Positions 8,401-27,601 are shown, counted from the first letter of the stretch. The stretch: DNA of 32,000 nucleotides from Propionibacteriaceae bacterium (GCA_031256725.1 JAIRQE010000006.1:90001-122000), one strand, 5' to 3'. The notes: generated from the letters alone by a model not told the origin. Numbers and translations: made by a program.

Positions 8401-8945
8401 CGCTGTTGGATTTCCAGGTTGTATGGGGGTACTGGCCATGTTTCTCGCGTGGTAACGACCTCGTTCTCGTGGATCAGCCCCAGTCTTTCCATTTCCCGCG
8501 CCAGTCTTCGGGAAACCATCTGTGTCTTGCGGATTACTTCCGTGATGAGGCTGAGATGAACCAGTACGGCCCCGATGTTGTTGGATTCCAACTCGTCACC
8601 GTCGGCGAGCAGATCAGCCAGCGTACGGCAGAACTCTTCAAGGCTGATGCCTATCGTGATTATTACGAACTCCATGGGTTATCTGTACAACTTACTGAAG
8701 CTTTCGCTGAGTTCTGGCATACAACAGTGAGGGATGAATTGGGGATTAGTGCATCGTCTGGTGAACGGTACTCCTTTGGTTACCCATCCTGCCCAGACCT
8801 CTCCCAACGCCAAGGGATCATTGAGCTACTCAAGCCGGAAACCATTGGAGTGACTCTTTCTGAGGAGTACCAACTCCATCCAGAACAATCCACAGACGCG
8901 ATGATCCTTCATCATCCCGAAGCCCACTATTTCTCCGTGAGGTGA
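5421..8945 (+). CDS. metH: cobalamin-dependent methionine synthase
   Basis: Four modules are recognisable. The Hcy-binding module has GGCCGTTPDHI. The pterin-binding module has GERTNASGSKAFRE. The B12-binding module has DVHDIGKN and SGLL. A C-terminal AdoMet reactivation domain follows. Start is either ATG 5421 or GTG 5400. Confidence 0.92.
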   Translation: MPSRLSLRSVLGSRTLIADGGMGTMLQRYDLSLEDFSGYEGCNEMLSLTHPEIVGAIHREYFEAGSDLVTTNTFGANLSALREYDLENRIEELAQAGARIAREIADELSTPQRPRWVLGSMGPGTKLASLGQITYRELRDSYALQAAGMVRGGVDAVLVETSQDILCVRAAVAGAKRAIAEAGVDCPVLVSVTMETTGTMLVGSDISAVVASVASLGIDGLGLNCATGPEDMRNYLRQLADLSPVPLTCMPNAGMPVLSDDGAYYPLGAEEFAGIMRSFVDTYGLALVGGCCGTTPDHIRAVAGALRENSLDAATNAQHDGAQLQHDGGSSLRPEGSSFCALQLRAAQALSQNPDTDSHSSGWVSSLYSATSIAQEISYLSIGERTNASGSKAFREALLAADWDKCVDIARGQAAEGAHVLDLCVDYVGRDGRTDMAELASRISREVDIPLQIDSSDPEVIRIGLENTPGRAIVNSVNLESGTGPGSKFTATMDAVREHGAAVVALCIDEEGQARTAEGKLAIARRIISILTSDYGMDERDIIIDPLTFPVATGQDDARRDALNTMEALALIKAEFPQVHTGLGVSNVSFGLKPAARVVLNSIFLNECRTHGLDTGIVPPARILPLSQIPEDQAQAALDVILDNRSDGDPVERFVSMFEGAAARAQAVIEKSLPIEERLRRHIVGGVVAGLETDLTVALESKTAVQIINEDLLGAMKEVGEAFGAGRMQLPFVLKSAEVMKKSVTFLEPYLDRVDGATKGTLVLATVRGDVHDIGKNLVDIILTNNGYRVVNLGIKQPIADIISAAEEVGADAIGMSGLLVKSTQIMKENLEELNELGLGLRYPVLLGGAALTRAYVEGDLNEVYTGEVRYAHDAFEGLALMDAVMATKDGAGELPTTRVRSVAPAQHLEPVTTRSTITRPIPGQVEVSVLPFTGVREGRATLDEVVPFLDKRALFAAQWGLKSSKDGPSYEDLVASEGEPRLAWWIDLLAEESLLDFQVVWGYWPCFSRGNDLVLVDQPQSFHFPRQSSGNHLCLADYFRDEAEMNQYGPDVVGFQLVTVGEQISQRTAELFKADAYRDYYELHGLSVQLTEAFAEFWHTTVRDELGISASSGERYSFGYPSCPDLSQRQGIIELLKPETIGVTLSEEYQLHPEQSTDAMILHHPEAHYFSVR

Positions 8946-9874
8946 CCATGACAGATCTGATACTCCCTCTATCCGGCGTGCGGCGAGGCCCCCTTGTGGC
9001 AGGTGAACGAGTAAGCATCACCAACCCGAAGGGCCGCCGCTATTCTGTACTCCTCAAAGAGGGTGGGCAATTCCACTCAACCAAGGGGATCATCAACCAT
9101 GACGATCTCATCGGCAAGACTGAGGGGATCGTCGTCAACTCTACGGGCGGGGTGCCCCATATTGTGATGCGCCCAATCCTGGAAGAGTTCACGGTCTCTA
9201 TGCCGCGAGGGGCGACTGTCATCTATCCTAAGGATGCCTCCTATATCTTGATGTACACCGACATCTTTCCTGGGGCGCGTGTCTTGGAAGCCGGAGCTGG
9301 ATCTGGTGGGCTCTCGATTTCTCTTCTGCGTGGAATAGGGCCAGAAGGCAAGCTATACTCCTATGAACGCCGAGAGGATTTTGCAGAGACGGCAAGGAAA
9401 AACGTCGAGCAGTTCTATGGCGGTCCTCATCCAGCGTGGACCCTCCAGGTTGGGGATCTTGTTGAATCCTATGCAGGCGAAAAGGTGGATCGGGTTATCT
9501 TGGACATGCTCGCTCCCTGGGAGTGTATTGACACTGTTCATACGGCCCTTGAACCTGGTGGATGGCTCTGCTGTTATGTGGCCACGACGACTCAGATGGG
9601 TCGTACCATGGACACTATCCGTACCCATGGTGGCTGGGTTGAACCCCGCTCTATTGAAGTGAACCTACGAGAGTGGCATGCTGAAGGTTTGGCCATCCGA
9701 CCTGGCCACGCTGGCCGGGGGCACACGGGTTTCATTATCCACGCTCGTCGATTGGCGGATGGGGTACAGGCCCCCATCAAGCGTAGGCGTCCCGCTCCTG
9801 GAGCATATGGTTCGGATTATTCTGGCCCGCGTCCCCCCGGAGTGGAGGAGTACGATTCATACTCAGCGCAGTAG
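8942..9874 (+). CDS. trmI: tRNA (adenine58-N1)-methyltransferase
   Basis: SAM-binding EAGAGSGGLS followed by LYSYERREDFAETARKN, resembling the mycobacterial Rv2118c-type TrmI. The GTG at 8942 overlaps the metH stop (GTGA); ATG 8948 is an alternative start. Confidence 0.85.
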   Translation: MTMTDLILPLSGVRRGPLVAGERVSITNPKGRRYSVLLKEGGQFHSTKGIINHDDLIGKTEGIVVNSTGGVPHIVMRPILEEFTVSMPRGATVIYPKDASYILMYTDIFPGARVLEAGAGSGGLSISLLRGIGPEGKLYSYERREDFAETARKNVEQFYGGPHPAWTLQVGDLVESYAGEKVDRVILDMLAPWECIDTVHTALEPGGWLCCYVATTTQMGRTMDTIRTHGGWVEPRSIEVNLREWHAEGLAIRPGHAGRGHTGFIIHARRLADGVQAPIKRRRPAPGAYGSDYSGPRPPGVEEYDSYSAQ

Positions 9875-9893
9875 GGACCGATATACTGCACCT

Positions 9894-11258
9894 ATGAATC
9901 CAGTCTTTTTCGTGGCACTTGTTGCTGGAAAACTGTGTGCGCTTCTCATACGGATTCTTGCGCCGCGCAGGGGTACGAACATTCCAGGACTCATTGCTGT
10001 AAAAATCGATAAGAAGTTCCTTACCAGGGTTCAGGGTATTGATCCGGCGAAGACTATTTTCATTACGGGGACCAACGGAAAATCAACATCGACCAACTTG
10101 GTTGTACACACTCTTAAAAGCGCAGGGCTGTCTGTTTGTTCAAACCTTGAAGGTGCCAATATGCAGCCGGGGGTGGCGACTGCTCTGCTTGGTGCCACAA
10201 CTCTTGGTGGCAGATTCACGAAAGACTATCTTGTTCTTGAAATTGATGAACGTAGTCTTGGGCTGGTCTGCGCTGATCTCAAGCCTGGTCATCTGTGTGT
10301 GATGAATATCCAAAAGGATCAGGTTCAGCGTAATGGGGAACCCGACTATATCTTCCAGAAGATTAGGACTGTGGTTTCATCACTGTCGAATCTTAGTATT
10401 TATCTAAATAATGATGAGCCTCGCTCTTTGGCTCTCGCGGACTCGTGGAGGGAAGGGTTGAAGGTCGTCACCTTCTCGGTGGCCAAGAATTCTCGAAGTT
10501 CAGTCATGGAGGCAGACTGGGGTGTGACCATGCCATGTCCTCGATGTCATGATGCACTTGAGTTCTCCCATATGACTATTGCGGGAATGGGATCATTCCA
10601 CTGCGTTTCATGCGGATTCCGGTCGGGGTCTGCCGCCACGGTCATTGACAGTGTTGACTATGCCACAAGCACTTTCACTTCCGAATCTGTGAGCTATCAT
10701 CTAGCCTATCAAGCGGCTTTCTTTGTTTACAGTTGTTCCCTATGTCTGTGTCTTGCTGCGGAGCTTGGTGTTGATACTGACAAAGTCGTGAAAGCCCTAG
10801 AATCCTTTGAGAATATCGGCGGCAGAATGGAGTCATTTACCTATTCTGGCAAGGAGATATTCTATGTACGCATCAAGCAGGAGAACCCAGAGACCCTCCA
10901 AAGTGCGTTTGATACGATGGCAGAGGATTCACACACCAAGGTTGTCTCACTGGGGCCAGATATTGTCAGCGACTTTGTTCCCCATTACTCCAATACTTTC
11001 TATACCTTCGACTGCAACCTTGAACCACTGATTTCTTCTGGAGTTGAGAGATGGGTTTGTTTCGGTGGAGTCACTGCGTGGGACACCGCCAATAGACTGA
11101 GGTACGCGGGTGTACCCGACGACAGGATCGTCATCGTCGACTCGGATGATACCCAACAGATTCTTGATGCCCTTGTCGCCTGCAAGACGGATAAGGTCCA
11201 TCTGATCACATGGATGAAAATGTACACCGATCTCAAGGAGAGAGCCCATGAGCGTTGA
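9894..11258 (+). CDS. MurT-like Mur-ligase family protein, non-canonical (lacks the ADGRD segment)
   Basis: Mur-ligase P-loop ITGTNGKST, EIDERS, KDQVQRNGE, and a Cys4 ribbon CPRC...CVSC. The C-terminal domain is DUF1727-like (IKQENPET ... GVTAWDTANRLRYAGV). ATG 9894 lies 19 nt after the trmI stop; the tracked ORF start at 9678 is an overlap artefact. Confidence 0.8.
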   Translation: MNPVFFVALVAGKLCALLIRILAPRRGTNIPGLIAVKIDKKFLTRVQGIDPAKTIFITGTNGKSTSTNLVVHTLKSAGLSVCSNLEGANMQPGVATALLGATTLGGRFTKDYLVLEIDERSLGLVCADLKPGHLCVMNIQKDQVQRNGEPDYIFQKIRTVVSSLSNLSIYLNNDEPRSLALADSWREGLKVVTFSVAKNSRSSVMEADWGVTMPCPRCHDALEFSHMTIAGMGSFHCVSCGFRSGSAATVIDSVDYATSTFTSESVSYHLAYQAAFFVYSCSLCLCLAAELGVDTDKVVKALESFENIGGRMESFTYSGKEIFYVRIKQENPETLQSAFDTMAEDSHTKVVSLGPDIVSDFVPHYSNTFYTFDCNLEPLISSGVERWVCFGGVTAWDTANRLRYAGVPDDRIVIVDSDDTQQILDALVACKTDKVHLITWMKMYTDLKERAHER

Positions 11259-12009
11259 TGCGAAGGTGAATCTTCTGTGGCTATGGCCAGACATCCTCAA
11301 TCTTCACGGTGATCGAGGCAATGCCATGGCTTTTCAGCGCATAGGCCATCTGTGTGGGGTTGAGGTTGAGGTGACGAGAGTCACTCAACTCTCACAGGGT
11401 TTTGATCTTGAAAAGGCCGATATTGTTCTGCTTGGTTCAGGAGAGATAGTCGTACTACTAAGAATCATTGAGGCCCTTTCTGGGAATCCCCAGTTGGGGT
11501 CGTGGATTGATGATGGGGGAGTTCTCTTTGCCGTAGGGACTACTGGGTCGGCCTTGGGTCGGGTTATCCATCGTCGTGATGGCAAGATCGCGGGTCTTGG
11601 ATTGCTTGATATGGAATCCCATGAGAGGAAAATGATCCTGGGAGATGATCTCATCTATAAGACCCAGGATATGACCATCTATGGAAGCCAGGTGCATATG
11701 ATGGATGTACATTTGGGTCCTTCCCAATCCTCTTTTGGTTCCGTGACCTATGGGTACGGCAACAATGGGGGTTCTGACGAGGGGGCTGTGCGTCAGAATC
11801 TGGTGTACACCAATGCTTTGGGGCCTGTACTTGTGAAGAATCCTTGGCTCGTGGTTGATCTGATTAACCGTGCGTTGGTTCGTCGCGGGATTGCGGAGGA
11901 AGATCGACTGGTATGCGATCCAGCATTGTTCCGCTTTGAACTGGCATCCGCAGAGGCCATCCAACGGTTTAATGACTCGAAGGAGAAGCCACAATGGGCG
12001 CGCGGCTGA
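11248..12009 (+). CDS. GatD-like (CobQ-type glutamine amidotransferase-like) protein without a nucleophile cysteine
   Basis: Collinear by eye with recalled S. aureus GatD (LNLHGDRGN, GLGLLD, VTYGYGNN, GPVLVKNP). The nucleophile elbow reads FAVGTTGSALG, with Val at 11533-11535. The gene overlaps the MurT-like gene by 11 nt. Confidence 0.75.
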   Translation: MSVDAKVNLLWLWPDILNLHGDRGNAMAFQRIGHLCGVEVEVTRVTQLSQGFDLEKADIVLLGSGEIVVLLRIIEALSGNPQLGSWIDDGGVLFAVGTTGSALGRVIHRRDGKIAGLGLLDMESHERKMILGDDLIYKTQDMTIYGSQVHMMDVHLGPSQSSFGSVTYGYGNNGGSDEGAVRQNLVYTNALGPVLVKNPWLVVDLINRALVRRGIAEEDRLVCDPALFRFELASAEAIQRFNDSKEKPQWARG

Positions 12010-13720: not shown

Positions 13721-13748
13721 TTGCAAATTGTCAAGATGCATCTATATT
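13721..13748 (+). promoter_or_regulatory. candidate sigma-70-type promoter for the PadR operon
   Basis: TTGCAA (13721-13726), a 16-nt spacer, then TATATT (13743-13748). Sequence match only. Confidence 0.3.
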
Positions 13749-13763
13749 GACAGTCTATCTAGT

Positions 13764-14141
13764 ATGTGTCACGATATAGGTGTGGAAAGTGTTGAAAGAC
13801 CTGCTGAGTGGCTGCGAGGTCTGCTGGATCTGTGTGTTTTGGCTGTGATCGAGCAGGGGCCTACTTATGGGTACAAGATTTCGACAGCGCTGACTACGGC
13901 TGGTCTGGGGGAGATCAAGGGAGGTACCTTGTACCCCTTGCTGTCTCGGGCAGAGCGCGATGGTCTAGTTGACACCCATTGGGAAGCAGGCGATGGGGGG
14001 CCTGGGCGGAAGTTCTACACATTGACCTCTCAAGGCCAGCAAAGGCTAGCCGAACTTCGTACTGCATGGGAGAACTTTCGGGAGGATGTCAACAGGGTTG
14101 TTGAGGGACACCCAAGAATCGAGATTGAGGAGGAATCGTGA
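13764..14141 (+). CDS. PadR family transcriptional regulator
   Basis: Winged-helix PadR signature: LRGLLDLCVLAVIEQGPTYGYKI ... GTLYPLLSRAERDGLV ... RKFYTLTSQG. The start is uncertain (ATG 13764, GTG 13782 or TTG 13728). Confidence 0.85.
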   Translation: MCHDIGVESVERPAEWLRGLLDLCVLAVIEQGPTYGYKISTALTTAGLGEIKGGTLYPLLSRAERDGLVDTHWEAGDGGPGRKFYTLTSQGQQRLAELRTAWENFREDVNRVVEGHPRIEIEEES

Positions 14142-14216
14142 GTGCGTCAATTATGGAGAGTACCCGAAAGTACCATGCTCCTAAGCCGGGAAGCTTGGAG
14201 GCACTAGGAGGCCAGA

Positions 14217-15002
14217 ATGTACCCAGCAAGTAAGTACCCCCACAAGGTACCTAATCCGCGAAGTGTTGAGGGACACCTAGCGCCGCAGGTTGACGCAAAC
14301 TGGAGTCAGCCCTTCATTAAGGAGATGCGGTTCCTGGAGGTACCTGGCCCAGAAATTGGAGCCGCCCTCGCGGATGTCAACACTCATGTGAGTGAATTGG
14401 GTGAGGACGCGTGGAGATCCTTTGGTGAGCCCATTGCTTATGCAGCGAGTCTCAACCTGCCCAGACGAGAACCACGCAAGGTCTATTGGGAACCGGCCTG
14501 CATAGTATTTCAGGCAACAGCGATGTGGATCCTTTGTGAAGCCTTCTGGAGGATGCTTCGTTCCTTTTCGGACTTTTACATCCAGCCGCCTTTGGTTTTC
14601 TTGGTCCTCTGCCTGATGGTTCTCATGAGTACTGGTGATCGAGTTATGAGGTGGATTGTTCACAATTCTGCTTGCCTTCAAACAGCTTTGCTCGCTTCTG
14701 CAGGAATTGTCGGAGCGATGTTTTTTATTCTGTGGATTACTGGTGGTGCTGGCTGGGGAGAACTACCCTTAGTGTGGGCATGGGTGGTTTCAGGTGTTTT
14801 CATGGTCACTGGAACACTACCGTTGGTCATATCTGGACGGTGGGGAAGGATCGCCCGAAATCCCATTCCTGTACCAGATCACCCCAATCCTCCGCGCCAA
14901 CTGAGAGGCTTAATTGATTGGGATAACGTCTTCTGGTTTCCTGTTGGCGCCGTTGTTGTGCCCGTAATCTACTACGGCATCAATTTTGTTTTCTCCGGTT
15001 GA
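14217..15002 (+). CDS. PadR-associated integral membrane protein
   Basis: AGGAGG ribosome-binding site before the ATG. The N-terminal soluble helix region (FIKEMRFLEVPGPEIGAALADVNTHVSELGEDAWRSFGEP) is typical of membrane partners encoded after PadR genes. Several hydrophobic spans follow. Confidence 0.65.
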   Translation: MYPASKYPHKVPNPRSVEGHLAPQVDANWSQPFIKEMRFLEVPGPEIGAALADVNTHVSELGEDAWRSFGEPIAYAASLNLPRREPRKVYWEPACIVFQATAMWILCEAFWRMLRSFSDFYIQPPLVFLVLCLMVLMSTGDRVMRWIVHNSACLQTALLASAGIVGAMFFILWITGGAGWGELPLVWAWVVSGVFMVTGTLPLVISGRWGRIARNPIPVPDHPNPPRQLRGLIDWDNVFWFPVGAVVVPVIYYGINFVFSG

Positions 15003-15039: not shown

Positions 15040-15975
15040 TCACTGGTTGAGGAGGATCTTTGGGGCACGACTTCTGACCATGATGGAGGCGATGACAAGG
15101 TAGGCCACCATACAGATCAGGAGTCCACTGCAGTCTATGAGGGCGGTCTCGAAGGTGGGTTCCCAGGTGAATCCGTGCTCGTCGTAGGGGTTTAGGCTTT
15201 CAAGGTCGATCTGGGCGGCCCAGGCTCCACCGGCCCATCGTGCGGGGATGACTAGGGAGATGAGTTTCAGAACATCGCCAGCCCATCCTTCAAGATTGTC
15301 TAAGGGGATGGGAATTTCGGAGAGCACGACGAACATAGCCAAGGTAGCCATGAGTACCAAAACGGTCGACTTTGTCCCTCTGACAACGCTGGATACTGCC
15401 AAACCCATGGCGGTACAACACCAGGAGTAGAGGACCAACATGATGGCGAGGAAGGCGAAATTATTCTCGTGAACCATCGTTGTGTCGGTCTCGACGAGAA
15501 GGCAGAAGAACCATGCGGTTAGGACACCTAGGACGATTGTGGGGGGAACAGATCCAAGGAATTTCGAGAGGATATGTTGCCACCCGCGTACTCCCCATGA
15601 GGATTCCCGGGCTAGTACCTTCCATTCATCGCTAACACCAGCAGTTGTGAGGCCTATGGAACCAAAGCCAACCACGGTCAAGACAACGAGTAGGGCAGAA
15701 ACCGAGGAAACCGACTCGACTCCGAGGTTGTTTCCCTTGAGAACCGACTTTCCTACGACGGCCGCCATCAGAGGAAACAAGACGATGATCCACACCGCTT
15801 TGAGTCGCCCCAAGGCCCATTTTCGGATGAAGTTGAGTACCTTGGATTCCCCAGGCTTGTAGGGGACCCAGGCGCTGAAGGGGCGTCCCAGTTCACGGGA
15901 GACCAGGGTACGTAGGCGACCAGAATGTCGAGGACTATAGGATTTGAGAAGCTGATCAAGTGTCTTCTTTGCCAT
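15040..15975 (-). CDS. ABC-2 type transporter permease
   Basis: Multiple hydrophobic spans. ATG 15975 lies 1 nt after the ATPase stop (TGAGATG). It is the last gene of the five-gene operon. Confidence 0.7.
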   Translation of the reverse strand: MAKKTLDQLLKSYSPRHSGRLRTLVSRELGRPFSAWVPYKPGESKVLNFIRKWALGRLKAVWIIVLFPLMAAVVGKSVLKGNNLGVESVSSVSALLVVLTVVGFGSIGLTTAGVSDEWKVLARESSWGVRGWQHILSKFLGSVPPTIVLGVLTAWFFCLLVETDTTMVHENNFAFLAIMLVLYSWCCTAMGLAVSSVVRGTKSTVLVLMATLAMFVVLSEIPIPLDNLEGWAGDVLKLISLVIPARWAGGAWAAQIDLESLNPYDEHGFTWEPTFETALIDCSGLLICMVAYLVIASIMVRSRAPKILLNQ

Positions 15976-15976
15976 C

Positions 15977-17455
15977 TCACCACCGCCCGTTCTCAAGGTT
16001 TTCCATGAGCTGTGCATCGTCACCAGGGGCAGCATTGCAGGCAAGGTACATGTCGGCCTTGCGTCCTTCGTAGGCGACTTCGCTGAGGAACTGGTTCCGG
16101 ATTCCCAAAAGGATCACATAGGCATCGTCAGGCAGATGTACCAGGGTGTGGGTCACCATGATGACGATCTTTGTACTCGACTCTGAGGCAACGAGTTCAA
16201 GGGATCTCATGAGTGCCCGATCGCTAGCGGGGTCGAGTCCAGAATTGGGTTCGTCAAGAAGCAGGATCGTCGGAATACTCATCAGTTCCATAGCCAGGGA
16301 GATCCTCTTGAGTTGCCCACCTGAGAAACTACTCATGTAGTCGTTGTGGCGTTTCATGAACACATCAATCAGTCCAGTATTATTCAGAGCCTTCTTCATG
16401 GTCTCGTGGATCTCATGGGAGCCACCAGGGGTACGTTTCAGCCAATAAGCATCAGAAAGCATTCGCCCCAAAGACACATCTGGCGCCAAAACAGTTTCCT
16501 GGGGTACAAGTGCCGCCACATGTTGTCGTTTCCTGCCACGAGTATGGAGGGGTTCCTCGCCCAACAGCATGGTTGGGTTTCCACGGGTGCGTGTACCTGC
16601 AGAAATTAGAGCACGAAGCAGGGTCGTCTTTCCTGTACCACTGGGGCCACATAATGCCACGACAGAGTTCATTGGAACGCTGAAGGTCAATTCCAGTCGT
16701 TTCTGTGGTCTGGATTTATGTCCGATGGGAAGGATCAGATTGTTGACAGTGAGGGCGTGAAGCCGGTCAGGGCGTTTGGGATCTGTACTGGGAATATCGC
16801 AAGGGCTAGCCTCAAGAAACTCGAACCCAAACCAGCTAAAACGGGTACCTGCGATCTCGAACCATTCGCCAGGGGAGAGTTCAACCGAATCGTGGACTCC
16901 AGCCCCATTGCTGAGGAATACTCCCCGGTCAGCTCCCTTGTGGCGAATGATGGTCAAGGATTCTGCTTGGGCATTCCATCGCAGGGTTGCAGCACGACTT
17001 GGCAGGCCCGGTGTAGTGACCACGAGGTCGCAGGATTCTGCACTGCCCAAGGTGAGGAACTCGCCTGGCCTCAAAGTGAGAGATGAGTCTGCTCGTTCAG
17101 GCCGTTTGAGTCTGGGGCGAGGAATCCTGAAAGGAACCGGTGCCAGGGAAACCTGAATAAAACCGTCTTTCTGGACGGTGAACCTCACCTTATCGATCTC
17201 GAACCACTCAAATTCGCTGACCCTGATGGAGTCATGAGCTCCGTTCACGTCAGTCAGCTGTGTTCGGCGACCATGTTTGACCACAGTCAGTCGCTCGCGC
17301 TCCTCATCCCATTGGAGACTTGCCGCATGGGCGGGAAAACCAGGGCGACGTACCAGTATTTGACAGGCAGAGTCAGAGCCGAGAAGGATCCACTGTCCGG
17401 CAGGGATCTGATGGATTTCCTGATGAGTACTCTCAGTCACGGGTCCCCCCATCAT
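15977..17455 (-). CDS. ABC transporter ATP-binding protein with two N-terminal FHA-like modules
   Basis: The ABC cassette has Walker A GPSGTGKT, Q-loop LVPQET, signature FSGGQ, Walker B ILLLDEP and H-loop VTHT. Two N-terminal repeats (about residues 15-100 and 125-210) show an FHA pattern: LLGS..C.ILV..PG..AHA ... NG ... F.I. Architecture resembles M. tuberculosis Rv1747, but with the permease encoded separately. Confidence 0.8.
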   Translation of the reverse strand: MMGGPVTESTHQEIHQIPAGQWILLGSDSACQILVRRPGFPAHAASLQWDEERERLTVVKHGRRTQLTDVNGAHDSIRVSEFEWFEIDKVRFTVQKDGFIQVSLAPVPFRIPRPRLKRPERADSSLTLRPGEFLTLGSAESCDLVVTTPGLPSRAATLRWNAQAESLTIIRHKGADRGVFLSNGAGVHDSVELSPGEWFEIAGTRFSWFGFEFLEASPCDIPSTDPKRPDRLHALTVNNLILPIGHKSRPQKRLELTFSVPMNSVVALCGPSGTGKTTLLRALISAGTRTRGNPTMLLGEEPLHTRGRKRQHVAALVPQETVLAPDVSLGRMLSDAYWLKRTPGGSHEIHETMKKALNNTGLIDVFMKRHNDYMSSFSGGQLKRISLAMELMSIPTILLLDEPNSGLDPASDRALMRSLELVASESSTKIVIMVTHTLVHLPDDAYVILLGIRNQFLSEVAYEGRKADMYLACNAAPGDDAQLMENLENGRW

Positions 17456-18422
17456 CTGGATCGGCTATTTTCACAGGCGTACCAGTATTCAGGGAGTAAA
17501 GATCGCCATTGCGTGCTTCAAGTCCAGTCCATTGTTGGGCGATATTGACCATACCTGCTATTCCCCGTCCGTGCCCAGAGGCGAGTACGATAATTCGTTC
17601 GATGTGATCTGGAGGTAGTACCTCCCCAGCAGCCTGTGTGAACTCGTCGACATTGGTCACCATGAGGCTCTCTGTGAGTGAGTAAATAATGAGTCGTCCC
17701 AGAAGCTCACTGTCGCCATCACGGGTACCAGCGACAGTTGTGATCTCTTCCCCAGGTGGTACATTCGCGAAACCGGCTGCGCCTTTGAAGCGGAAGGAAT
17801 CCGTGTCGAGCATGAAGACCCGTCGTAACCCTGGAACATGGTGTACATCTGGTGGTGCTGTGAGGAGATTCGGTGCACGCAGATCTCCGATCGTCACCCC
17901 CCGAAGATGGAGGTCGTGAACAAGGAGCAAGACCTCGCCCAGACGTGCAATCTTCTGGTATTTCGGATAGTACGAAGGGTTGTGATGTCTTCCAGCGAAA
18001 ACCCTGCCCTGAGTGACCCGTGAAAACGATGGCCATCCTTGGGTTGTGTCGCCCCAGTCGCCAGCAGACTCATGCCATCGTAGGAGGATTCCGATTCGCT
18101 TGCCTTTGTCTTCGATGATGGCTAGAGGCCAGGAACACGAATTGAGGAGGAGGGCATCTTTCGTATGAGTGGAATCTACCAGGGGCGAGACCACATCGTT
18201 CATGAGAGTTTCAAGATTGCTCCAGTCTATACAGTCACCAGTTCCAGGGCCCTTATGACCAGGCAAGCATTGGGGTTTGAGTATCTTAGCTACGTAGAGG
18301 TTCCTAGACTCATCTCGGCATCGTGTCACTGAGGCAGCGTTGGCAGTCGCCGATGATTCACCCATGAGGCTGGTTGTGTCCATCTCCAAGCATCTGAGAT
18401 CTACCGTGGGGGTTTGTACCAT
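17433..18422 (-). CDS. atypical protein-kinase-like protein
   Basis: Three kinase-like motifs: YVAKILK (beta3 Lys), VHDLHLRGVTIGDLRAPNLL (catalytic loop D-L-R-x-P-N in place of HRDLKPxN), and FMLDTDSF (DFG-equivalent). No obvious Gly-rich loop. An AAGGGGGG ribosome-binding site precedes ATG 18422. Confidence 0.6.
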   Translation of the reverse strand: MVQTPTVDLRCLEMDTTSLMGESSATANAASVTRCRDESRNLYVAKILKPQCLPGHKGPGTGDCIDWSNLETLMNDVVSPLVDSTHTKDALLLNSCSWPLAIIEDKGKRIGILLRWHESAGDWGDTTQGWPSFSRVTQGRVFAGRHHNPSYYPKYQKIARLGEVLLLVHDLHLRGVTIGDLRAPNLLTAPPDVHHVPGLRRVFMLDTDSFRFKGAAGFANVPPGEEITTVAGTRDGDSELLGRLIIYSLTESLMVTNVDEFTQAAGEVLPPDHIERIIVLASGHGRGIAGMVNIAQQWTGLEARNGDLYSLNTGTPVKIADPDDGGTRD

Positions 18423-18432
18423 CAAGCCCCCC

Positions 18433-19311
18433 TTATCTCATCACCAGTGCAGCGACGGATGCATCATCACCAGTTTGGGCGGCACAGTCTTCAACGAGAC
18501 GCAGAAGGTACTTCTTGAGCAGACTTCCATCAGCAATATCGGGTGTCCGGGTAGCTGCAAGGTGTTTCTCGTTGACATGGAGGATTCGCGCTGCTCCATC
18601 TGTACATGCGAAGCAAACCTGACCACTCGCGAGTTTAATGATGCCGTACTCGGCGTGGCTGTGGACACCGGGTAGAGCATTTGTGAAGGAACTTGATCGA
18701 CCCTCGTAGGTGGCATCGTGCCTCGTGAGCCACTGTATCCCCTCAGCGCTGATCAGACCAAAAGCTGAATCCCCTACGGTAAGCCAGTAGCAGGAAACCC
18801 CTCGAAGGGTTGGGATGAAGACACCGAAAACGAGAGTACTTGCTGGATAAAGATCCTCGCCTGTGATCTTTCGAGCGGTGTGGGCGTGGGCCCTCATAGC
18901 ATGATCAACTTTGGCAAGGATCGTGTGTACCATCACAGACCATGCGAGGGTGTTCCAGATGTTGAATCCACTCGAATCAGCCCAGGATTTCACCTGGGTC
19001 CAGGCGGTACGAATAGCGATGTCGGCACTTTCTCGTACAAGTTGCCTGGATTTTTTGCTGGTGTGTGAGGTACCACTCACGCCGTCAGCTACTGCGATGA
19101 AACCCAGATTCTCGGCAACACCAATAAATGCAGAGTCCTGCAAGGGCCACGGTGGTTCCGCGAAGAAATGGTTGCTGCCTATACATGATGCATGGGCTCC
19201 AAAAAAGGTTTCTGTGTTGTAGTGTCCCGATTCCATGGGTTTGTCTGCAAGGAGAAACTTAGACTCGCGGCGTTGTGCTGCCCGAAGATGATAAGGAATA
19301 ACGCTGCTCAT
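18433..19311 (-). CDS. PP2C-family Ser/Thr protein phosphatase
   Basis: PP2C motif series: LQDSAF, IAVADGVSG, VGDSAFGLIS, ACTDGAARIL, GDDASVAALV. The ATG lies 3 nt after the vWA stop. Confidence 0.8.
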   Translation of the reverse strand: MSSVIPYHLRAAQRRESKFLLADKPMESGHYNTETFFGAHASCIGSNHFFAEPPWPLQDSAFIGVAENLGFIAVADGVSGTSHTSKKSRQLVRESADIAIRTAWTQVKSWADSSGFNIWNTLAWSVMVHTILAKVDHAMRAHAHTARKITGEDLYPASTLVFGVFIPTLRGVSCYWLTVGDSAFGLISAEGIQWLTRHDATYEGRSSSFTNALPGVHSHAEYGIIKLASGQVCFACTDGAARILHVNEKHLAATRTPDIADGSLLKKYLLRLVEDCAAQTGDDASVAALVMR

Positions 19312-19314
19312 CGT

Positions 19315-20106
19315 CTAGTATCCCTTGGCTGGAACATAGTCAAAACCAGGCAGTCCTCCAGGGGTGGTGAACTTCTTTCCTCGAGAGGACAGAGCCACGG
19401 AATTGATAATGAACTCGAAGACATGACCGATGACTCCGTGACTCCCATCGACACCAATGGATTGAACGAAACCTGTACCACCGTGGCTGCGTGTTGCTAT
19501 GCGGGCGATGGTGTGGGTCTTCGCATGGCCGAAACCTAAGGCTGCGATCCCGGGGGAATAGGCGGGCTTGGATAGCTGATCATAGGAGGATCTCCATCCC
19601 CGATCCTTGGGTTTACCATCGGTGATGAAGAAGACCGCAGGCCGGCTCCTATCGCTGTAGTGGTTGCTGAGGTACTGGTCATCCTGGTTGAGCACCTCCA
19701 AGAGATATTGGAAAGCTGTGCCATAGTGTGTTGAGGATTGTTTTTCGTGTGCCTTTTGGAGGGACTTCCCAATGTCGAAATGACTGAGTCGATGGATTGC
19801 TGTTAACGGAAGGATGGTCTCAACTTGGTCACCAAATGCCACGATCGAGAACAGGCCCCTCTCATAGATCTGGTGGTAGTCCTCATGGGAGAAAGCCAGA
19901 GACTGAGCAGCAGTAGTACCGCTGTAGGCACCCTCGCGAAGGAGGACCATGAGTGCCGCAGTCCACTCTTTAATGTCATCTAAAGCGGAGAAGGTCTCAC
20001 CTTTGACCGTGATCTCATCATTCATTGATGGGGAGACATCAATGACAAGATAAAAAGGAAAGGCACTGCCAAACCCTGTCATTCGTTCATAGGCAAACTC
20101 ACGCAC
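19315..20106 (-). CDS. TerY-like von Willebrand factor A (vWA) domain protein
   Basis: MIDAS motif DxSxS in FPFYLVIDVSPSM, plus FFITDGKPKD. The overall N-terminus is TerY-like. GTG 20106 lies 9 nt after GGAGG; TTG 20112 and a downstream ATG are alternative starts. Confidence 0.75.
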   Translation of the reverse strand: MREFAYERMTGFGSAFPFYLVIDVSPSMNDEITVKGETFSALDDIKEWTAALMVLLREGAYSGTTAAQSLAFSHEDYHQIYERGLFSIVAFGDQVETILPLTAIHRLSHFDIGKSLQKAHEKQSSTHYGTAFQYLLEVLNQDDQYLSNHYSDRSRPAVFFITDGKPKDRGWRSSYDQLSKPAYSPGIAALGFGHAKTHTIARIATRSHGGTGFVQSIGVDGSHGVIGHVFEFIINSVALSSRGKKFTTPGGLPGFDYVPAKGY

Positions 20107-20246
20107 TGACAACCCCCTCCTTGGCGTGTCGCGAAAAAGTACACACCATTGTTGTTAACTATTCAGCGTTGATAGTCTATACCGAGTTTTATCCTGACAA
20201 CGCCAATATTGAAAGTTCGCAGCAGGGACAGAGTAAACTAGAGCGG

Positions 20247-21068
20247 ATGAATACCGACGAGATATCCAGGGTCCTTCTGGCTGACCCGACGAGTTCTTTT
20301 ACCCAGTTTCTGGGGCGTACCTCTCCCGAATTCCTGCCGGTACAAACGCTGGGACGCTCAGGAGGTGACCTCTCTCCAACAGCGACGACAATTGTTGCTG
20401 TGGCGACCGAGGAGGGGGTGATCCTGGCAGGGGATCGCAGGGCAACAGTGGGTTCAATGATCGCTCAGCGGGATATTCAAAAGGTCTACCCAGCTGACGA
20501 GTACTCAGCAATCGGCATAGCGGGCTCTGCAGGGTTATCCATCGATCTGGTGAAGCTCTTTCGGGTCGAATTGGAGCACTACGAGAAGATTGAGGGTACA
20601 CCCCTGACCCTCGACGGTAAGGCGAACCGATTGGCCTCCATGATTCGAGGAAATCTGGGGATGGCACTCCAAGGGTTTGTGGTGGTTCCCCTATTTGTCG
20701 GATGGGATAGGGTCCGTAACAGGGCGCGAATTTTCTCCTATGACCCCACAGGTGGTTGCTATGAAGAGAACGGTTATTACGCAGTAGGTTCCGGTTCGGT
20801 GTTTGCCAAGGGCTCTCTGAAGAAACTGTATTCCTCGAAAGCGAGCCTGGAACAGGCAGTGATCATGTGTATCCAAGCACTCTTTGATGCTGCTGATGAT
20901 GATGCAGCAACAGGGGGGCCAGATGTACTGAGGCGAATCTTCCCCGTTGTGGTCTCGGTTACCGCCCAGGGGGCGACCCAGATTCCTGAATCTCAGATTG
21001 CTGAGATCACAGACACAGTGTTGGCTGGGCGTATGACTCGCCCCGATGGACCGGAGGCCCAACTATGA
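20247..21068 (+). CDS. prcB: 20S proteasome beta subunit
   Basis: The propeptide contains SSFTQFLGRTSPEFLP (compare recalled M. tuberculosis SSFTDFLRRQAPELLP). This is followed by the mature N-terminus TTIVAV..GVILAGDRRAT...QK, giving Thr1/Asp17/Lys33. The tracked ORF starts at TTG 20121; ATG 20247 fits homologues better. Confidence 0.88.
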   Translation: MNTDEISRVLLADPTSSFTQFLGRTSPEFLPVQTLGRSGGDLSPTATTIVAVATEEGVILAGDRRATVGSMIAQRDIQKVYPADEYSAIGIAGSAGLSIDLVKLFRVELEHYEKIEGTPLTLDGKANRLASMIRGNLGMALQGFVVVPLFVGWDRVRNRARIFSYDPTGGCYEENGYYAVGSGSVFAKGSLKKLYSSKASLEQAVIMCIQALFDAADDDAATGGPDVLRRIFPVVVSVTAQGATQIPESQIAEITDTVLAGRMTRPDGPEAQL

Positions 21069-21808
21069 GCCAGCCCACTTTCTATGTTTCACCCGAGCAG
21101 CAGATCAAGGATCGCGCAGAGTTTGCCCGCTCTGGGATCGCCAAAGGGCGTTCAGTAATCGTTGTCCGATACGAGAATGGGATACTTTTCATTGGGGAGA
21201 ATCGTTCGAAGTCCCTCCACAAATTCGCTGAGATCTATGACCGGATTGGGTTCGCAGCCGTAGGAAAGTACAACGAGTTCGAGAACCTCCGTATTGCTGG
21301 GATCCGCCACGCTGATGTTCGCGGGTACGCCTATGATCGCCATGATGTGACAGGGAGGATGCTCGCGGGGGCCTATACCCAGTTGCTTGGCATGATCTTC
21401 TCTGCAGTGATGGAGAAACCCTACGAGGTTGAGCTGATCATCTCAGAGGTGGGGAATCAAGCTGAGGGGGATCAGATCTTCCGTGTGAACTTTGATGGAT
21501 CCATCACAGAGGAATCTGAGTATTCGGTCATAGGAGGGGCTGCAGATCTCATTGGTACTGCTCTCCAAGACACCTATGTACCTCAGATGAGTCTCGCAGA
21601 ATCCTTTAAGGTATGTCTGGCAGCATTGGCGGCCGATCCTCGCGGTCGTGATGTGGATGTCGATGCCTTGGAGGTTGCGGTCCTGGATCGTACACGCACC
21701 CAGACTCGAAAATTCCAACGACTGGAGACCCACGAGATCCGTGAACTCATAGAAGCAAAGCCACGCAAAGCCCAGGCGAAGAAGACAGATGATGATTCCA
21801 TGCAATGA
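21065..21808 (+). CDS. prcA: 20S proteasome alpha subunit
   Basis: Full-length similarity to recalled M. tuberculosis PrcA (YVSPEQ, RAEFARSGIA, YDRIGFAAVGKYNEFENLR, ADVRGYAYDRHDVTGR, KPYEVEL). ATGA overlap with the prcB stop. Confidence 0.9.
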   Translation: MSQPTFYVSPEQQIKDRAEFARSGIAKGRSVIVVRYENGILFIGENRSKSLHKFAEIYDRIGFAAVGKYNEFENLRIAGIRHADVRGYAYDRHDVTGRMLAGAYTQLLGMIFSAVMEKPYEVELIISEVGNQAEGDQIFRVNFDGSITEESEYSVIGGAADLIGTALQDTYVPQMSLAESFKVCLAALAADPRGRDVDVDALEVAVLDRTRTQTRKFQRLETHEIRELIEAKPRKAQAKKTDDDSMQ

Positions 21809-23586: not shown

Positions 23587-24894
23587 ATGAAGCCTATTGT
23601 TGCGGTGGTGGGGCGTCCCAACGTGGGCAAGTCGACCCTAGTCAATCGAGTTTTGGGGCGGCGCGAGGCCGTCGTACAAGACATTCCAGGTGTGACCCGA
23701 GATCGGGTGAGCTATGATGCTGAATGGAATGGACGCGAGTTTGTGGTCGTCGATACCGGTGGATGGATCCCTGATGCCAAGGGTATGGCCATGCAGATCG
23801 CAGAGCAGGCAGAACTTGCGATAGAGATGGCTGATGCTGTGGTCTTCGTTGTGGATGCGACCATGGGGTACACCAACGAAGATGAGGCCGTGGTACGTGT
23901 CCTTCGCAAGGCCAGGAAGCCAGTGATTCTGGCAGCCAACAAGGTTGATGACCAAAGGCTTGAGGCTGATGTGACCTCCATGTGGAACCTTGGATTAGGG
24001 GAGCCCTATCCTGTATCAGCCCTTCATGGGCGCGGGTCGGGGGATCTGCTTGATGCTGTGTTGGGTGTACTTCCACCCAAGGAGGAGATCAATGAGGCCG
24101 AGGATGGGCCTCGACGTGTCGCCATTGTGGGGAAACCCAATGTGGGGAAGTCGTCGTTGTTGAACCAACTGTGTGGTGAGCAGCGTTCGGTTGTGGATAA
24201 TGTCGCGGGAACAACCGTGGACCCAGTCGATGAGATCGTCCAGATCGGTGATCAGGTCTATCACATGGTTGATACTGCCGGGATTCGTCGCCGTGTGAAA
24301 GAGGCCTCCGGTCATGAGTACTATGCGTGGTTGCGTACACAGACGGCCATCGAACGCGCTGAGGTCTGTATCGTCGTCATTGACTGTTCGGAGCCTGTGA
24401 CCGAGCAGGATCTTCGGATACTGTCGATGGTGGAGGCTTCAGGGCGAGCGATGGTTGTGGCCTATAACAAGTGGGATCTCATCGACGAGGAGAGACGCCG
24501 TTATTTGGACCGTGAGATTGAAAGGGATCTTCCTCATATTTCCTGGGCTCCATCGGTGAATATTTCTGCTTTGACAGGGAGAAACACAGGAAAACTCTCA
24601 CGTGCGATTGAGACCGCGCTTGAAGGGTGGGAGACCCGGATTTCCACTGGTCGGCTTAATGCCCTGTTGGGGTTGCTCGTCGCTGCTCATCCACATCCAG
24701 TCCGTGGTGGAAAGCAGCCTCGAATCCTGTTTGGTACCCAACCTCAAGCATGTCCGCCCACCTTCCTTCTGTTCACAACAGGGGAGCTGGATGCTCCCTA
24801 TGTACGCTTTATTGAGAGAAGACTGCGTGAGGAGATCGGCTTCGCTGGGACTCCTATACATATCTCAGTGAAGCCGCGAGCAAAGAGATCCTAG
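23587..24894 (+). CDS. der: ribosome-biogenesis GTPase Der (EngA)
   Basis: Two tandem GTPase domains (GRPNVGKS...DTGG...NKVD and GKPNVGKS...DTAG...NKWD) plus a KH-like C-terminus. Confidence 0.92.
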
Positions 24895-25595
24895 GCAGGG
24901 TCACCCTGATCTCGGTCGAGTTCCTTGAGATAGTTGTACACGGTGAAGCGGGTCACTGAGAGCGCTTGAGCTGCTCGTTCAACAGACTCTCTCAAGATGA
25001 AGAATCCGCTGGATTTCAATTCTGCGACAACTGCTTTCTTGTGTCTCTTATGCATCAGGGCTACGGGTACCTCAACGGCATTGATGGCTTTCATCAGGAG
25101 ATCTTCTGCCAAGTCATCAACATCGCCTACGAAATGCTCTGGGATCTGATCACCACCAGGGACGATTGCTGGCAGCATTGTTGCTGCGATCTCGGATACG
25201 GTACGCCAGATTCGAGTATCGCAGTTGATGCATAGGGCTGCGACGGGTTTGCCGGAACTTGTTTCCATGATGATGGTTGAGGATCGTAGTTCCTGACCAT
25301 TGGATCCTTTTCCTGTGTACCCCATCAGGGTTTTGAGTTGATCCCGAGCTGCTGCTTGGAGGAGCAGGTCGGTCGCTGGGCCTCCCACCTTGCGTCCAGT
25401 GAGGGAGCCTTCAAGCGCGACTATGGAGTTCGGGAGCAGGAAGAGATCGTGAAGGACTACCTCGCAGTCTCCGGGTAGAATCTGCGCCAAAGGAGCAATG
25501 AGAGATGACAGGGTACGAAGAATACAATCATGCTCAACCATCTCCTGCGGTGTCATGGTGGCGATACCGGGGACCCCACTTGGTGAAGTACTCAT
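24891..25595 (-). CDS. YheO-like PAS-domain / HTH transcriptional regulator
   Basis: YheO-like pattern [28 protein letters not shown] and a C-terminal HTH ([16 protein letters not shown]). ATG 25595 overlaps the ridA stop (ATGA). The longer ORF to 25706 would overlap ridA by 115 nt. Confidence 0.75.
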
Positions 25596-25996
25596 AGTTG
25601 GGTCTGTGGTACAGCAGCGATGGATTCGATTTCCACCTTGGCTCCTAATGGAAGTGCTGCAACCTGGAAAGCAGCTCGTGCAGGTAGGGGCTCGGTGTTG
25701 AACCACCGGGCATAGACCTCATTGACTGAAGCGAAGTCGGCCATATCGGCCAAGAGAACAGTGGTTTTCACTACAGCAGACAGATCTAATCCAGCCTCGG
25801 CAAGGATGGCTTGAATGTTGGACATTACCTGGTCGGCTTGTCCTGCGGCATCGGTTACTTCGATCACTCCTGTGGCAGGGTTGATGGGTATTTGACCCGA
25901 AACGAAGATGAGGTTCGAGGTTCGTACCGCTTGAGAATAGGGGCCGATGGCTGCGGGAGCTTTGACAGTGATAATGGGTGTATTCGTGGAAGTCAT
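25592..25996 (-). CDS. ridA: RidA family reactive enamine/imine deaminase
   Basis: YjgF/RidA signature: APAAIGPYSQAV...IFVSGQIP...ARAAFQVAALPLGAKVEIE. AAGGAGA ribosome-binding site. Confidence 0.88.
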   Translation of the reverse strand: MTSTNTPIITVKAPAAIGPYSQAVRTSNLIFVSGQIPINPATGVIEVTDAAGQADQVMSNIQAILAEAGLDLSAVVKTTVLLADMADFASVNEVYARWFNTEPLPARAAFQVAALPLGAKVEIESIAAVPQTQL

Positions 25997-26084
25997 GGTT
26001 GAGTCTCCTTGTTGACAACAGCATTGTTTCAGATCTTAGGGCAGTGGGCCTCGGTTGGAGGGTACCAATCGCCGCAACTCATCT

Positions 26085-26115
26085 ATGGGGCCGGTTATAA
26101 GGCTACCAGCCCCAT
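26085..26115 (-). other. 10-bp stem-loop just downstream of the permease stop (possible terminator or processing/stability element)
   Basis: In the minus sense: AUGGGGCUGG, an 11-nt loop, then CCGGCCCCAU (one G:U pair). It starts 14 nt after stop 26129. No U-tract follows. Confidence 0.3.
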
Positions 26116-26128
26116 AAATGAGGGATGT

Positions 26129-27592
26129 TCACTGGGAATGCGTAGTTTGAATAGCTGTTTGTCCTGTCTTCTTCACTTGATAGGCGACGAGTAGTACAGC
26201 AAGCCAAATCGGACCGATGATCACTGCGATTCTGTAACCGGGTGAGAAGCACATCATCACGACCACGAATGCCAGGAAAGCAATGACAAGGTAGTTGCTC
26301 AACGGTTGGAAGGGCAACTTGAATGAGAGTTTCGATACCTCGTCAGGGCCAATCCGTGAGCGGAACTTCAACTCGGTAACCATCACCATGATCCAGTTGA
26401 TGATTCCAGAGATGAGGGCAACAGACATCAGGTAGTTGAAGGCGAAGTCTGGCCATAGGAAAACCACGATAACTGCGATGACCGTGATGCCAGCTGAGGC
26501 GAGGATCCCTGGAATGGGTACTCCATTGCGCGCTACCTTGCCCAGGAAACGCGGAGCATTGCCTTGATGTGCGAGCGAATGCAACATGCGTCCATTGGAG
26601 TAGACGGCGGAGTTATACACCGAGAGTACTGCCGTAATGCACACGAAGTTAAGCAGAGCGGCCCCTGCTTTGAATCCTACATAGTCGAAGATCTGTACAA
26701 AGGGGCTCATCTTTCCGTTGATGGATTGCCAGGGTACGACAGCCATAATGATGGTCAATGTACCGATGAAGAAGAGCAGGATTCTCCAGGCGATCTGGTT
26801 GATAGCCTTGGGGATCGTACGGGTGGGATTATCAGCTTCGCCAGCTGTAATGGCGATCAATTCCACGCCACCAAATGAGAACATAACCACGACCATAGCC
26901 ATGACGAGGCCCACCCACGCTCCATCAATTTGACTCATGATGCCGAAGGGAAGGAAGCCACCAGTGGCAGGATCAATCAAATGATAGAAGGAGGGTACAG
27001 GGGTGCCCGGGTTATGGATCGAGGCGAAAACGATGATGAGCCCAACAACAATCATTGCCACGATGGCGAGTACCTTGATCATCGCAAACCAGAACTCAAA
27101 CTCCCCAAAGGAACGAACACCAATAAGGTTCACTGCGGTGATCAACACAAGACAGATGGTGGCAGTGGCCCATGCAGGGAAGTCAGGGAGCCAATAGTTC
27201 AAGTACAACCCGACGACCGCCAATTCGACCATGGAAACAAGAATGTAGTTGAACCAATAATTCCATCCAGATACGAACCCAGCTCGGTCACTCCAGTTGG
27301 CGTACGCATGATAGGTGAAGGCGCCCGCAACAGGGGTTCGTACTGACATCTCTCCCACAGCCCGCATGACGAAGAAGATAGCAATACCTCCGAGAAGGTA
27401 GGCGATTAGGATCGCTGGCCCAGCCATACTGATGGCTTCTGCTGAACCATAGAACAGGCCAGTACCAATACACCCACCGAGGGCGATCATCTGAATATGG
27501 CGGTTTTTGAGTCGCCGATGAAGGCCAGCGGTTTCTGTGGCTGCTTCAGTATTTTCAATGACGTCGTGTGTCACATTTTCTTCATGAGACAT
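26129..27592 (-). CDS. APC-family amino-acid permease, AroP-like (probable tryptophan/aromatic amino acid importer)
   Basis: LKNRHIQMIALGGCIGTGLFYGSAEAI...FFVMRAVGEMSV closely follows the recalled E. coli AroP/PheP N-terminus. About 12 hydrophobic spans. The gene starts 9 nt downstream of tnaA. Confidence 0.85.
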   Translation of the reverse strand: MSHEENVTHDVIENTEAATETAGLHRRLKNRHIQMIALGGCIGTGLFYGSAEAISMAGPAILIAYLLGGIAIFFVMRAVGEMSVRTPVAGAFTYHAYANWSDRAGFVSGWNYWFNYILVSMVELAVVGLYLNYWLPDFPAWATATICLVLITAVNLIGVRSFGEFEFWFAMIKVLAIVAMIVVGLIIVFASIHNPGTPVPSFYHLIDPATGGFLPFGIMSQIDGAWVGLVMAMVVVMFSFGGVELIAITAGEADNPTRTIPKAINQIAWRILLFFIGTLTIIMAVVPWQSINGKMSPFVQIFDYVGFKAGAALLNFVCITAVLSVYNSAVYSNGRMLHSLAHQGNAPRFLGKVARNGVPIPGILASAGITVIAVIVVFLWPDFAFNYLMSVALISGIINWIMVMVTELKFRSRIGPDEVSKLSFKLPFQPLSNYLVIAFLAFVVVMMCFSPGYRIAVIIGPIWLAVLLVAYQVKKTGQTAIQTTHSQ

Positions 27593-27601
27593 GATATTTC
27601 C

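Follow-up and report, generated by a model that had tools for sequence, protein, structure and literature searches.

We analysed a 32,000-nucleotide stretch of DNA from the metagenome-assembled genome of a Propionibacteriaceae bacterium (GCA_031256725.1 JAIRQE010000006.1:90001-122000; hereafter the window), focusing on five tightly abutting open reading frames (ORFs) on its minus strand at 15040-20112. They encode a von Willebrand factor A (vWA) protein, a PP2C phosphatase, a kinase-like protein, an ABC ATPase with two FHA-like modules and an ABC-2 permease. The same gene order is kept at divergent loci in unrelated contexts, and the five genes very probably form one co-inherited functional unit. 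The best overall explanation, to which we give about an even chance of being right, is that a TerY-P-type phospho-switch is joined at the genetic level to an exporter of the ABCG/ABC-2 type resembling Rv1747, with phosphorylation gating export. Both halves of this arrangement are known, namely TerY-P triads and kinase-regulated FHA-ABC exporters; what appears to be new is their union in one operon. We found no description of a TerY-P triad combined with an ABC exporter bearing degenerate FHA modules in the searchable literature, which did not cover the original 2012 TerY-P paper.

Recurrence of the five-gene order

Loci for comparison were reached from the closest ATPase homologues (41-47% identity) and from members of the kinase family. 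The order vWA, PP2C, kinase, FHA-like ABC ATPase and ABC-2 permease was present in the window and at four other loci: L001/L002, L003/L004 (where ATPase and permease are fused), L005/L006 (from another Propionibacteriaceae metagenome-assembled genome, or MAG) and L008/L009. A cut contig, L010, shows the order as far as it reaches and is compatible. Kinase identity among the five-gene loci was only 26-46%, and junctions were overlapping or near-abutting in each. The flanking genes were entirely different, comprising a PadR regulator and prcBA in the window, phosphoenolpyruvate carboxykinase and an SNF transporter at L005, and an Xre-type regulator and a PIN/RHH pair at L008. Because the order recurs in divergent loci with different contexts, we conclude that the juxtaposition is not accidental; because the flanks differ completely between loci, the unit appears to move as a whole. 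The original prediction had proposed that the triad and the ABC pair belong together, and their co-inheritance at the four other loci, with L010 compatible, bears this out. A recheck of the five-gene loci with our own hidden Markov models (HMMs) agreed, although this check is circular for those loci.

The combination of triad and ABC pair is specific but not obligatory. Near the canonical FHA-ABC genes that we examined there was at most a Hanks kinase, and in no case a gene for a vWA protein or a PP2C. At L015 (6989-11109; Nonomuraea gerenzanensis NZ_LT559118.1 753992-758112), genes for a vWA protein, a PP2C phosphatase and a kinase-family member are followed by a canonical Hanks kinase-FHA fusion. 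The Nonomuraea kinase-family gene matched the family with 100% hhalign probability; its record, labelled as an 11.85-Mb plasmid, carries no annotation over this stretch. At L005, a 279-nucleotide gap (9723-10000) separates the kinase-family gene from the called start of an ATPase of 393 residues with one module. The open frame of this ATPase extends upstream to 8741, and its start may be mis-called or its first module decayed. A locus search with the narrow kinase alignment returned one genome locus (the MAG of L005) and three metagenome loci. The five-gene system is very rare, and all its occurrences to date are in metagenomic assemblies.

Within the window, ORF calling reproduced the five-gene packing of the original prediction, with agreeing coordinates and all four junction distances matched (Table 1). 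The vWA stop and the PP2C ATG are 3 nucleotides apart, the PP2C stop and the kinase ATG 10 nucleotides apart, and the ATPase stop and the permease ATG 1 nucleotide apart, while the kinase stop and the ATPase start overlap by 23 nucleotides. Close packing by itself is common in bacteria, and recurrence across loci is the stronger evidence. A Shine-Dalgarno sequence (AAGGAGG, 20116-20122) lies 9 nucleotides from the GTG at 20106 and only 3 nucleotides from the TTG at 20112, so the GTG is the more likely start of the vWA gene. Consensus scans found no promoters or terminators within the operon above shuffle expectation, and a promoter scan found no consensus promoter in the putative divergent promoter region upstream.

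Table 1. Features of the operon and its upstream region in the window.
Feature	Position	Strand	Comment
vWA gene	19315..20112	-	TerY-like, MIDAS intact; start probably GTG 20106
PP2C gene	18433..19311	-	soluble minimal Ser/Thr phosphatase
Kinase-like gene	17433..18422	-	ATG start; in-frame TTG at 18425
ABC ATPase gene	15977..17455	-	two N-terminal FHA-like modules and nucleotide-binding domain
FHA-like module 1	17138..17422	-	ATPase residues ~12-106
FHA-like module 2	16811..17092	-	ATPase residues ~122-215
ABC-2 permease gene	15040..15975	-	ATG start; longest ORF from TTG 16044
Putative divergent promoter region	20113..20246	.	common to operon and prcB; inferred as the sole non-coding gap upstream of the operon

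Components of the switch and the pump

The vWA protein scored above the Pfam cutoffs for VWA_2 (33 bits, cutoff 27) and VWA (31.3 bits, cutoff 23.8). Its metal-ion-dependent adhesion site (MIDAS) is intact, with D25-x-S27-x-S29 and T164-D165-G166, and these DxSxS and TDG residues were invariant when the protein was aligned with five orthologues and two TerY proteins. It has no hydrophobic segments, and we regard it as a TerY-like protein that is predicted to be cytoplasmic. The PP2C protein matched PP2C_2 at 38.9 bits (cutoff 24). Its metal-binding residues D59, D76-G77, G180-D181-S182, D238-G239 and D282-D283 were invariant across eight relatives; with every metal-binding Asp kept, the window phosphatase is predicted to be catalytically intact. 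Most PP2C relatives have one or two N-terminal hydrophobic helices, and the window version is without this membrane or extracytoplasmic extension. In the L008 phosphatase, hydrophobic helices flank a loop of ~170 residues. The PP2C at L003 (1237-2886) is receptor-like: two hydrophobic helices enclose a LysM domain and a Ser/Pro-rich linker, and the phosphatase domain beyond them is cytoplasmic.

The kinase-like protein, of 329 residues and identical to NCBI entry LBG99_02180, had no match in Pfam, NCBIfam or PADLOC, and a word-index homologue search recovered only the protein itself. An exhaustive HMMER search against 1.84 billion cluster representatives returned 30 relatives at E ≤ 0.001. One match, P0126 (E 1e-22), was dropped as spurious, being a translated tandem DNA repeat. 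In an alignment of 28 members, K46, D180 and N185 were invariant and D206/D208 were at least 90% conserved, and the family consensus included GxGG...VxK, LHxxGxVVGDLxxxNxL and LDxDSF. When compared with the Protein Data Bank (PDB), the family profile matched almost only protein kinases; the best match, to CaMKIV (E 2.3e-5), covered the catalytic loop as well as the Gly-loop/Lys segment. AlphaFold2 with the family alignment gave a model with a predicted local distance difference test (pLDDT) score of 89.7 and a predicted template modelling score of 0.90. A single-sequence model (pLDDT 36.7) was of no use. The top Foldseek matches listed for the model were all kinase-domain structures, with probability 1.00 and TM-scores of 0.5-0.6.

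From the profile search and this model we consider the kinase fold established: it is bilobal, and it holds the beta-3 Lys together with the Asp and Asn of the catalytic loop and the metal-binding Asp. The third gene encodes a protein kinase that is atypical, belongs to a very small family akin to the TerY-P kinases and is predicted to be catalytically equipped. The kinase domain fills the 329 residues, with no OB fold and no zinc ribbon. Most relatives end in a Pro-rich linker and a hydrophobic C-terminal anchor; the window kinase is without the anchor. The kinase-family gene at L005 encodes 887 residues.

The TerY-P triad was reportedly described by Anantharaman, Iyer and Aravind in 2012. 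For comparison we used the Ter locus of Azospirillum ramasamyi, which has the order TerD (three copies), TerB, TerC, TerD, vWA, vWA, TerY-C, PP2C and an 'InaA family' kinase. A tblastn search of plasmids with the window vWA protein matched four records, including this locus, where the match fell on the first of the two vWA genes (E 1e-5, 88% query coverage). The kinase-family profile matched the kinase of the Azospirillum locus with 97% hhalign probability (E 7.9e-11, 207 columns) and a shared CxWPxAIV motif. Our window-family HMMs also matched the PP2C (4e-9) and kinase (2e-6) of that locus, neither of which had been used to train them. L019, a distant member of the family, has the classic TerY-P layout of zinc-ribbon kinase, vWA and PP2C, beside SIR2. 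By these comparisons the window triad is a divergent member of the TerY-P kind, with all three proteins detectably related, and the TerY-P affinity proposed in the original prediction holds for the vWA protein, the phosphatase and the kinase alike when each is compared with a genuine Ter locus.

Likeness to TerY-P systems extends to the components and their order, which are identical (MIDAS vWA, PP2C and Ser/Thr-type kinase), and to behaviour as a mobile module with varying partners. Differences lie in the surroundings and in the kinase. TerY-P kinases carry a C-terminal OB fold (Gao et al.) or a zinc ribbon (in CoCoNuTs), whereas the window kinase has neither and its family is very small, divergent and unmatched in Pfam. 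Ter genes are absent from the window, and the output is an ABC exporter. PADLOC left the vWA, PP2C and kinase proteins unmatched. However, a control Ter-locus triad also failed for vWA and PP2C, with its kinase matching STK_OB only at E 0.005. This negative therefore says little, since a genuine Ter locus largely fails as well and the models are too narrow.

The ATPase matched ABC_tran at 79.4 bits and has the Walker A, Q-loop, signature, Walker B and H-loop motifs, all at positions invariant in the alignments. It aligned with an FHA-FHA-ABC protein of Mycobacterium kyorinense at 27% identity over 91% of its length. PADLOC matches of the ATPase to mad3 and mad8 were rejected as generic ABC-ATPase similarity. 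The permease matched ABC2_membrane (47 bits) and ABC2_membrane_3 (45.4 bits) and has six hydrophobic helices; relatives P0003, P0005 and P0006 carry it as a fusion with the ATPase. Modules 1 and 2 are 38% identical (BLASTP E 1e-22) and represent a tandem duplication, marked in the DNA by a repeat at 16852/17194, with 342-nucleotide spacing, that encodes the duplicated EWFEI motif. Module 2 matched Yop-YscD_cpl of the Pfam FHA clan at E 1.8e-7, with 31.7 bits falling under the cutoff of 33.2. Module 1 was not detected by Pfam, and PF00498 (FHA) gave no match to either module up to E 0.1. A profile of 13 family modules aligned with a canonical FHA profile built from FHA-ABC transporters at 96.2% hhalign probability (E 2.3e-9, 79 columns). 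Because of this match and the whole-ATPase alignment to an FHA-FHA-ABC protein, the modules are best regarded as FHA homologues, apparently FHA-derived. All five domain assignments in the original prediction were sustained: the vWA, PP2C_2, ABC_tran and ABC-2 matches lie above Pfam thresholds, the kinase is supported by profile, AlphaFold2 and Foldseek, and the FHA-like modules by the 96% hhalign match.

The closest parallel on the pump side is Rv1747/PknF of Mycobacterium tuberculosis. Both systems have an exporter of ABCG/ABC-2 type with two N-terminal FHA-derived modules and an adjacent kinase gene; the window ATPase has whole-length homology to an Rv1747-like protein, and a glycolipid substrate is suspected in both (PMC5549992). 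PknF phosphorylates linker threonines, which regulates Rv1747 positively (PMC3138270), and Rv1747 mutants make less phosphatidylinositol mannosides (PMC5549992). The FHA domains of Rv1747 are canonical phosphothreonine (pThr) binders (PMC3138270), whereas the binding residues are replaced in the window modules. Rv1747 is also one fused polypeptide, while the window has one gene for the ATPase and another for the permease. PknF, a classical Hanks kinase, is encoded in a locus without a vWA or PP2C gene; by comparison, the window kinase is atypical and accompanied by both.

Other comparisons are looser. The YscD/EscD family supplies the best, sub-threshold Pfam match of module 2 (Yop-YscD_cpl), although the context here is different, being that of an ABC exporter. 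Members of Yop-YscD_cpl have kept the FHA fold and lost the pThr-binding residues. In the type VI pathway (PpkA, PppA and Fha1), kinase, vWA, PP2C and FHA domains gate a membrane export machine; in PpkA a periplasmic vWA domain is fused to the kinase, and Fha1 is a canonical pThr reader. The likeness to the window operon is one of logic only, and no type VI secretion genes were found in the window. In Deinococcus radiodurans, DRA0331-DRA0334 encode a vWA protein, a Ser/Thr kinase, an FHA protein and a PP2C with KI-FHA, with a push-pull of kinase and phosphatase like that proposed here (bioRxiv 10.64898/2026.01.23.701218). Compared by description, that operon differs in having no transporter, canonical FHA domains that stand alone or are fused to the phosphatase, and another gene order. 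This Deinococcus vWA-kinase-FHA-PP2C operon has been studied biochemically (bioRxiv 10.64898/2026.01.23.701218), and TerY-P-like modules act as stand-alone anti-phage systems according to the passages of PMC10542128 and PMC7699616 that cite Gao et al. 2020. The statement in the original prediction that the triad had never been characterised experimentally is accordingly outdated.

Proposed phospho-control of export and its alternatives

Whether phosphorylation controls export at all is, in our estimation, evenly balanced. If it does, the kinase and phosphatase would determine how far some part of the complex is phosphorylated, be it the disordered linkers of the ATPase, the vWA protein or the kinase itself, and this state would gate export. 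The FHA-like modules would serve as docking, regulatory or autoinhibitory elements rather than as canonical pThr readers, and the MIDAS of the vWA protein might bind a partner at an acidic or phosphorylated residue. Indirectly, cooperation of kinase and modules is best indicated by the recurrence of an FHA or FHA-derived domain in the downstream partner.

The input would probably be an envelope signal received at the membrane, because the kinase and PP2C of most relatives are membrane-anchored. In these relatives the two enzymes would be held in the membrane close to the pump, and the phosphatase would face the cell wall. The window would then encode stripped-down, soluble versions of both, and its close junctions leave no room for extensions. 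The original prediction had assigned sensing of the trigger to the vWA protein; this role found no support, and in relatives it is the PP2C that bears extracytoplasmic segments, including the LysM domain.

For the substrate, the pump's nearest relatives offer a hint. Its closest triad-less sister clade has a single module and a fused ATPase and permease, and is 45-47% identical. At L020 (953-6078) and L021 (2667-7724), sister pumps stand beside genes for GT87 and MptA/B-family mannosyltransferases; at L021 the pump and mannosyltransferase genes directly follow clpP-clpX. An envelope glycolipid or a lipoglycan precursor is the leading candidate, a tentative one that is weakly indicated because sister pumps adjoin mannosyltransferases and Rv1747 mutants make less phosphatidylinositol mannosides (PMC5549992).

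Several points weigh against phospho-gated export of an envelope component. The proposed phosphorylation targets rest wholly on inference, and the linkers between the modules contain Ser and Thr but are not conserved. The Gly-rich loop of the window kinase is degenerate relative to the family consensus GxGG. The modules are without the pThr-binding residues, so that the most natural link from kinase to pump is missing. The mannosyltransferase context belongs to the sister clade rather than to triad-linked pumps, and both contigs come from one metagenome (ERZ27257293). Finally, TerY-P triads are otherwise linked to defence (PMC10542128) and one kinase-family member is fused to a TIR domain, both of which point to a role in conflict rather than in routine upkeep of the envelope.

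Such a role is the chief rival. In a conflict system of the TerY-P kind, directed against phages or competitors, the triad would sense infection or attack and the ABC pump would be the effector or immunity output. We consider this somewhat unlikely, while noting that a conflict role and an envelope role are not mutually exclusive. It gains from the phage protection by TerY-P-like modules noted above (Gao et al. 2020, as cited in parts of PMC10542128 and PMC7699616) and from the company that TerY-P keeps with CoCoNuT restriction systems, Type II/III-A (PMC10542128). Members of the kinase family are very scarce and patchily distributed, and the operon has a different context at every locus. Signs of conflict also surround some relatives: the distant member at L019 lies beside SIR2, a PIN/RHH toxin-antitoxin pair lies near L008, and at L012 (202-2812) a TIR domain occupies the N-terminus of a kinase-family member of 649 residues, followed by a vWA gene on a short contig. 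The L012 arrangement suggests an NAD-degrading, immune-type variant of the switch.

The window itself weighs against a conflict role. Its neighbouring genes are housekeeping (metH, trmI, murT, prcBA, cmk and der), and it contained no Ter genes and no linkage to restriction or defence genes. G+C content was ~53% throughout, and window scans found no tRNA, integrase, flanking repeats or compositional anomaly near the operon. The absence of a PADLOC match for the triad also counts against a conflict role, but this test is weak for the reason given above. The nearest relatives of the pump sit in envelope-biosynthesis neighbourhoods. Lastly, we know of no described defence system with an ABC-2 exporter as its effector, and we counted this against the conflict role.

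A different mechanism would keep export under phospho-control but make the modules working FHA readers of pThr, as in Rv1747/PknF: the kinase would phosphorylate threonines, the modules would bind them and the exporter would be switched on. The ancestry of the modules favours this. They are FHA-derived, the ATPase has whole-length homology to FHA-FHA-ABC proteins, module 2 has its FHA-clan match at E 1.8e-7, and Rv1747 provides a precedent (PMC3138270). Their binding positions, which we read from MAFFT and hhalign alignments of the 13 family modules, argue otherwise. The canonical FHA Gly-Arg was replaced in 13/13 modules by Gly-Ser (Gly-Ala in one), and the Ser of the SxxH motif aligned with an invariant Pro, likewise in 13/13. 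A small non-His residue occupied the FHA His position (Ala in 12/13 modules and Cys in 1/13), and the Asn of the NG turn was not conserved. The replaced Ser corresponds to S47 and S248 of Rv1747, whose mutation (S47A, S248A) inactivated its FHA domains (Spivey et al., PMC3138270). In addition, no Pfam FHA-clan model reached its gathering score in either module, and the 13-module profile found no FHA structure among PDB sequences. The original prediction had called the reader of pThr 'obvious', which is unjustified because the pThr-binding residues are replaced, including the very Ser mutated in Rv1747. We judge canonical reading by these modules to be improbable.

We regard as very unlikely that the kinase-like protein is a pseudokinase or scaffold, regulating by binding rather than phosphotransfer, for example through the vWA MIDAS attaching to an acidic residue. 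The degenerate Gly-rich loop of the window protein would fit such a role, as would a helix-C Glu that is not conserved in the family and the lack of a Pfam match. Yet the beta-3 Lys, catalytic Asp and Asn, and D-x-D metal motif are invariant or nearly so among the 28 members, and the intact PP2C that is always adjacent would make little sense without kinase activity. That the triad and ABC genes merely happen to adjoin and work independently is close to refuted: the ABC clade occurs without the triad and the triad with other partners, but order and close junctions are kept in five divergent loci in unrelated contexts, with L010 compatible.

Genomic setting and significance

On its upstream side the operon is directly divergent from prcB and prcA (20121-21808). 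The longest ORF of prcB, from TTG 20121, is probably over-extended; its start is uncertain, with ATG 20247 a candidate. In actinobacteria, pup usually directly precedes prcB, and here the operon sits in that position; pup, dop, arc/mpa and pafA were all absent from the 32-kb window. On the other side, at 13728-15002, a PadR-family regulator (13728-14141) is followed by a protein of 261 residues that matches no family and has four hydrophobic segments. The two genes are convergent to that of the permease and are not kept beside the operon at other loci.

Farther away, a trmI-like ORF (8942-9874) and a MurT-like ORF (9678-11258) overlap by ~200 nucleotides as called, so the MurT-like start is probably later. 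The MurT-like gene is followed by an ORF of 253 residues (11248-12009) without a Pfam match at 1e-5, in the place where a GatD partner is expected. The minus strand at 24891-28981 encodes a YheO-like PAS/HTH regulator, an amino-acid permease and a beta-eliminating lyase of tryptophanase or tyrosine phenol-lyase type. A Fic/DOC-family protein is encoded at 30178-30966, and over the window's final kilobase G+C falls to 0.44. An Rfam scan of the entire window gave no match.

TerY-P triads are widespread, attached to many defence and stress systems, and phage-protective, and we found no account of their phosphorylation targets or signalling. In the operon such a triad has a single, biochemically tractable output, namely an ABC ATPase whose N-terminal modules would be regulatory. 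Since ATPase activity can be used as a read-out, the family offers a simple test bed for the TerY-P switch. It would also take the model set by Rv1747, in which a kinase controls glycolipid export, outside the mycobacteria, and it presents an FHA lineage without a pThr pocket that is still linked to a kinase/phosphatase pair. The great rarity of the system, so far confined to metagenomic assemblies, limits its general importance.

A bolder reading, which we think unlikely, is that the operon represents a hitherto unrecognised TerY-P-type class that drives a membrane ABC-2 machine through FHA-derived modules with a ligand other than pThr, and that might serve defence or envelope remodelling under attack. 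If true, it would give the TerY-P triad its first concrete output and a route to its mechanism.

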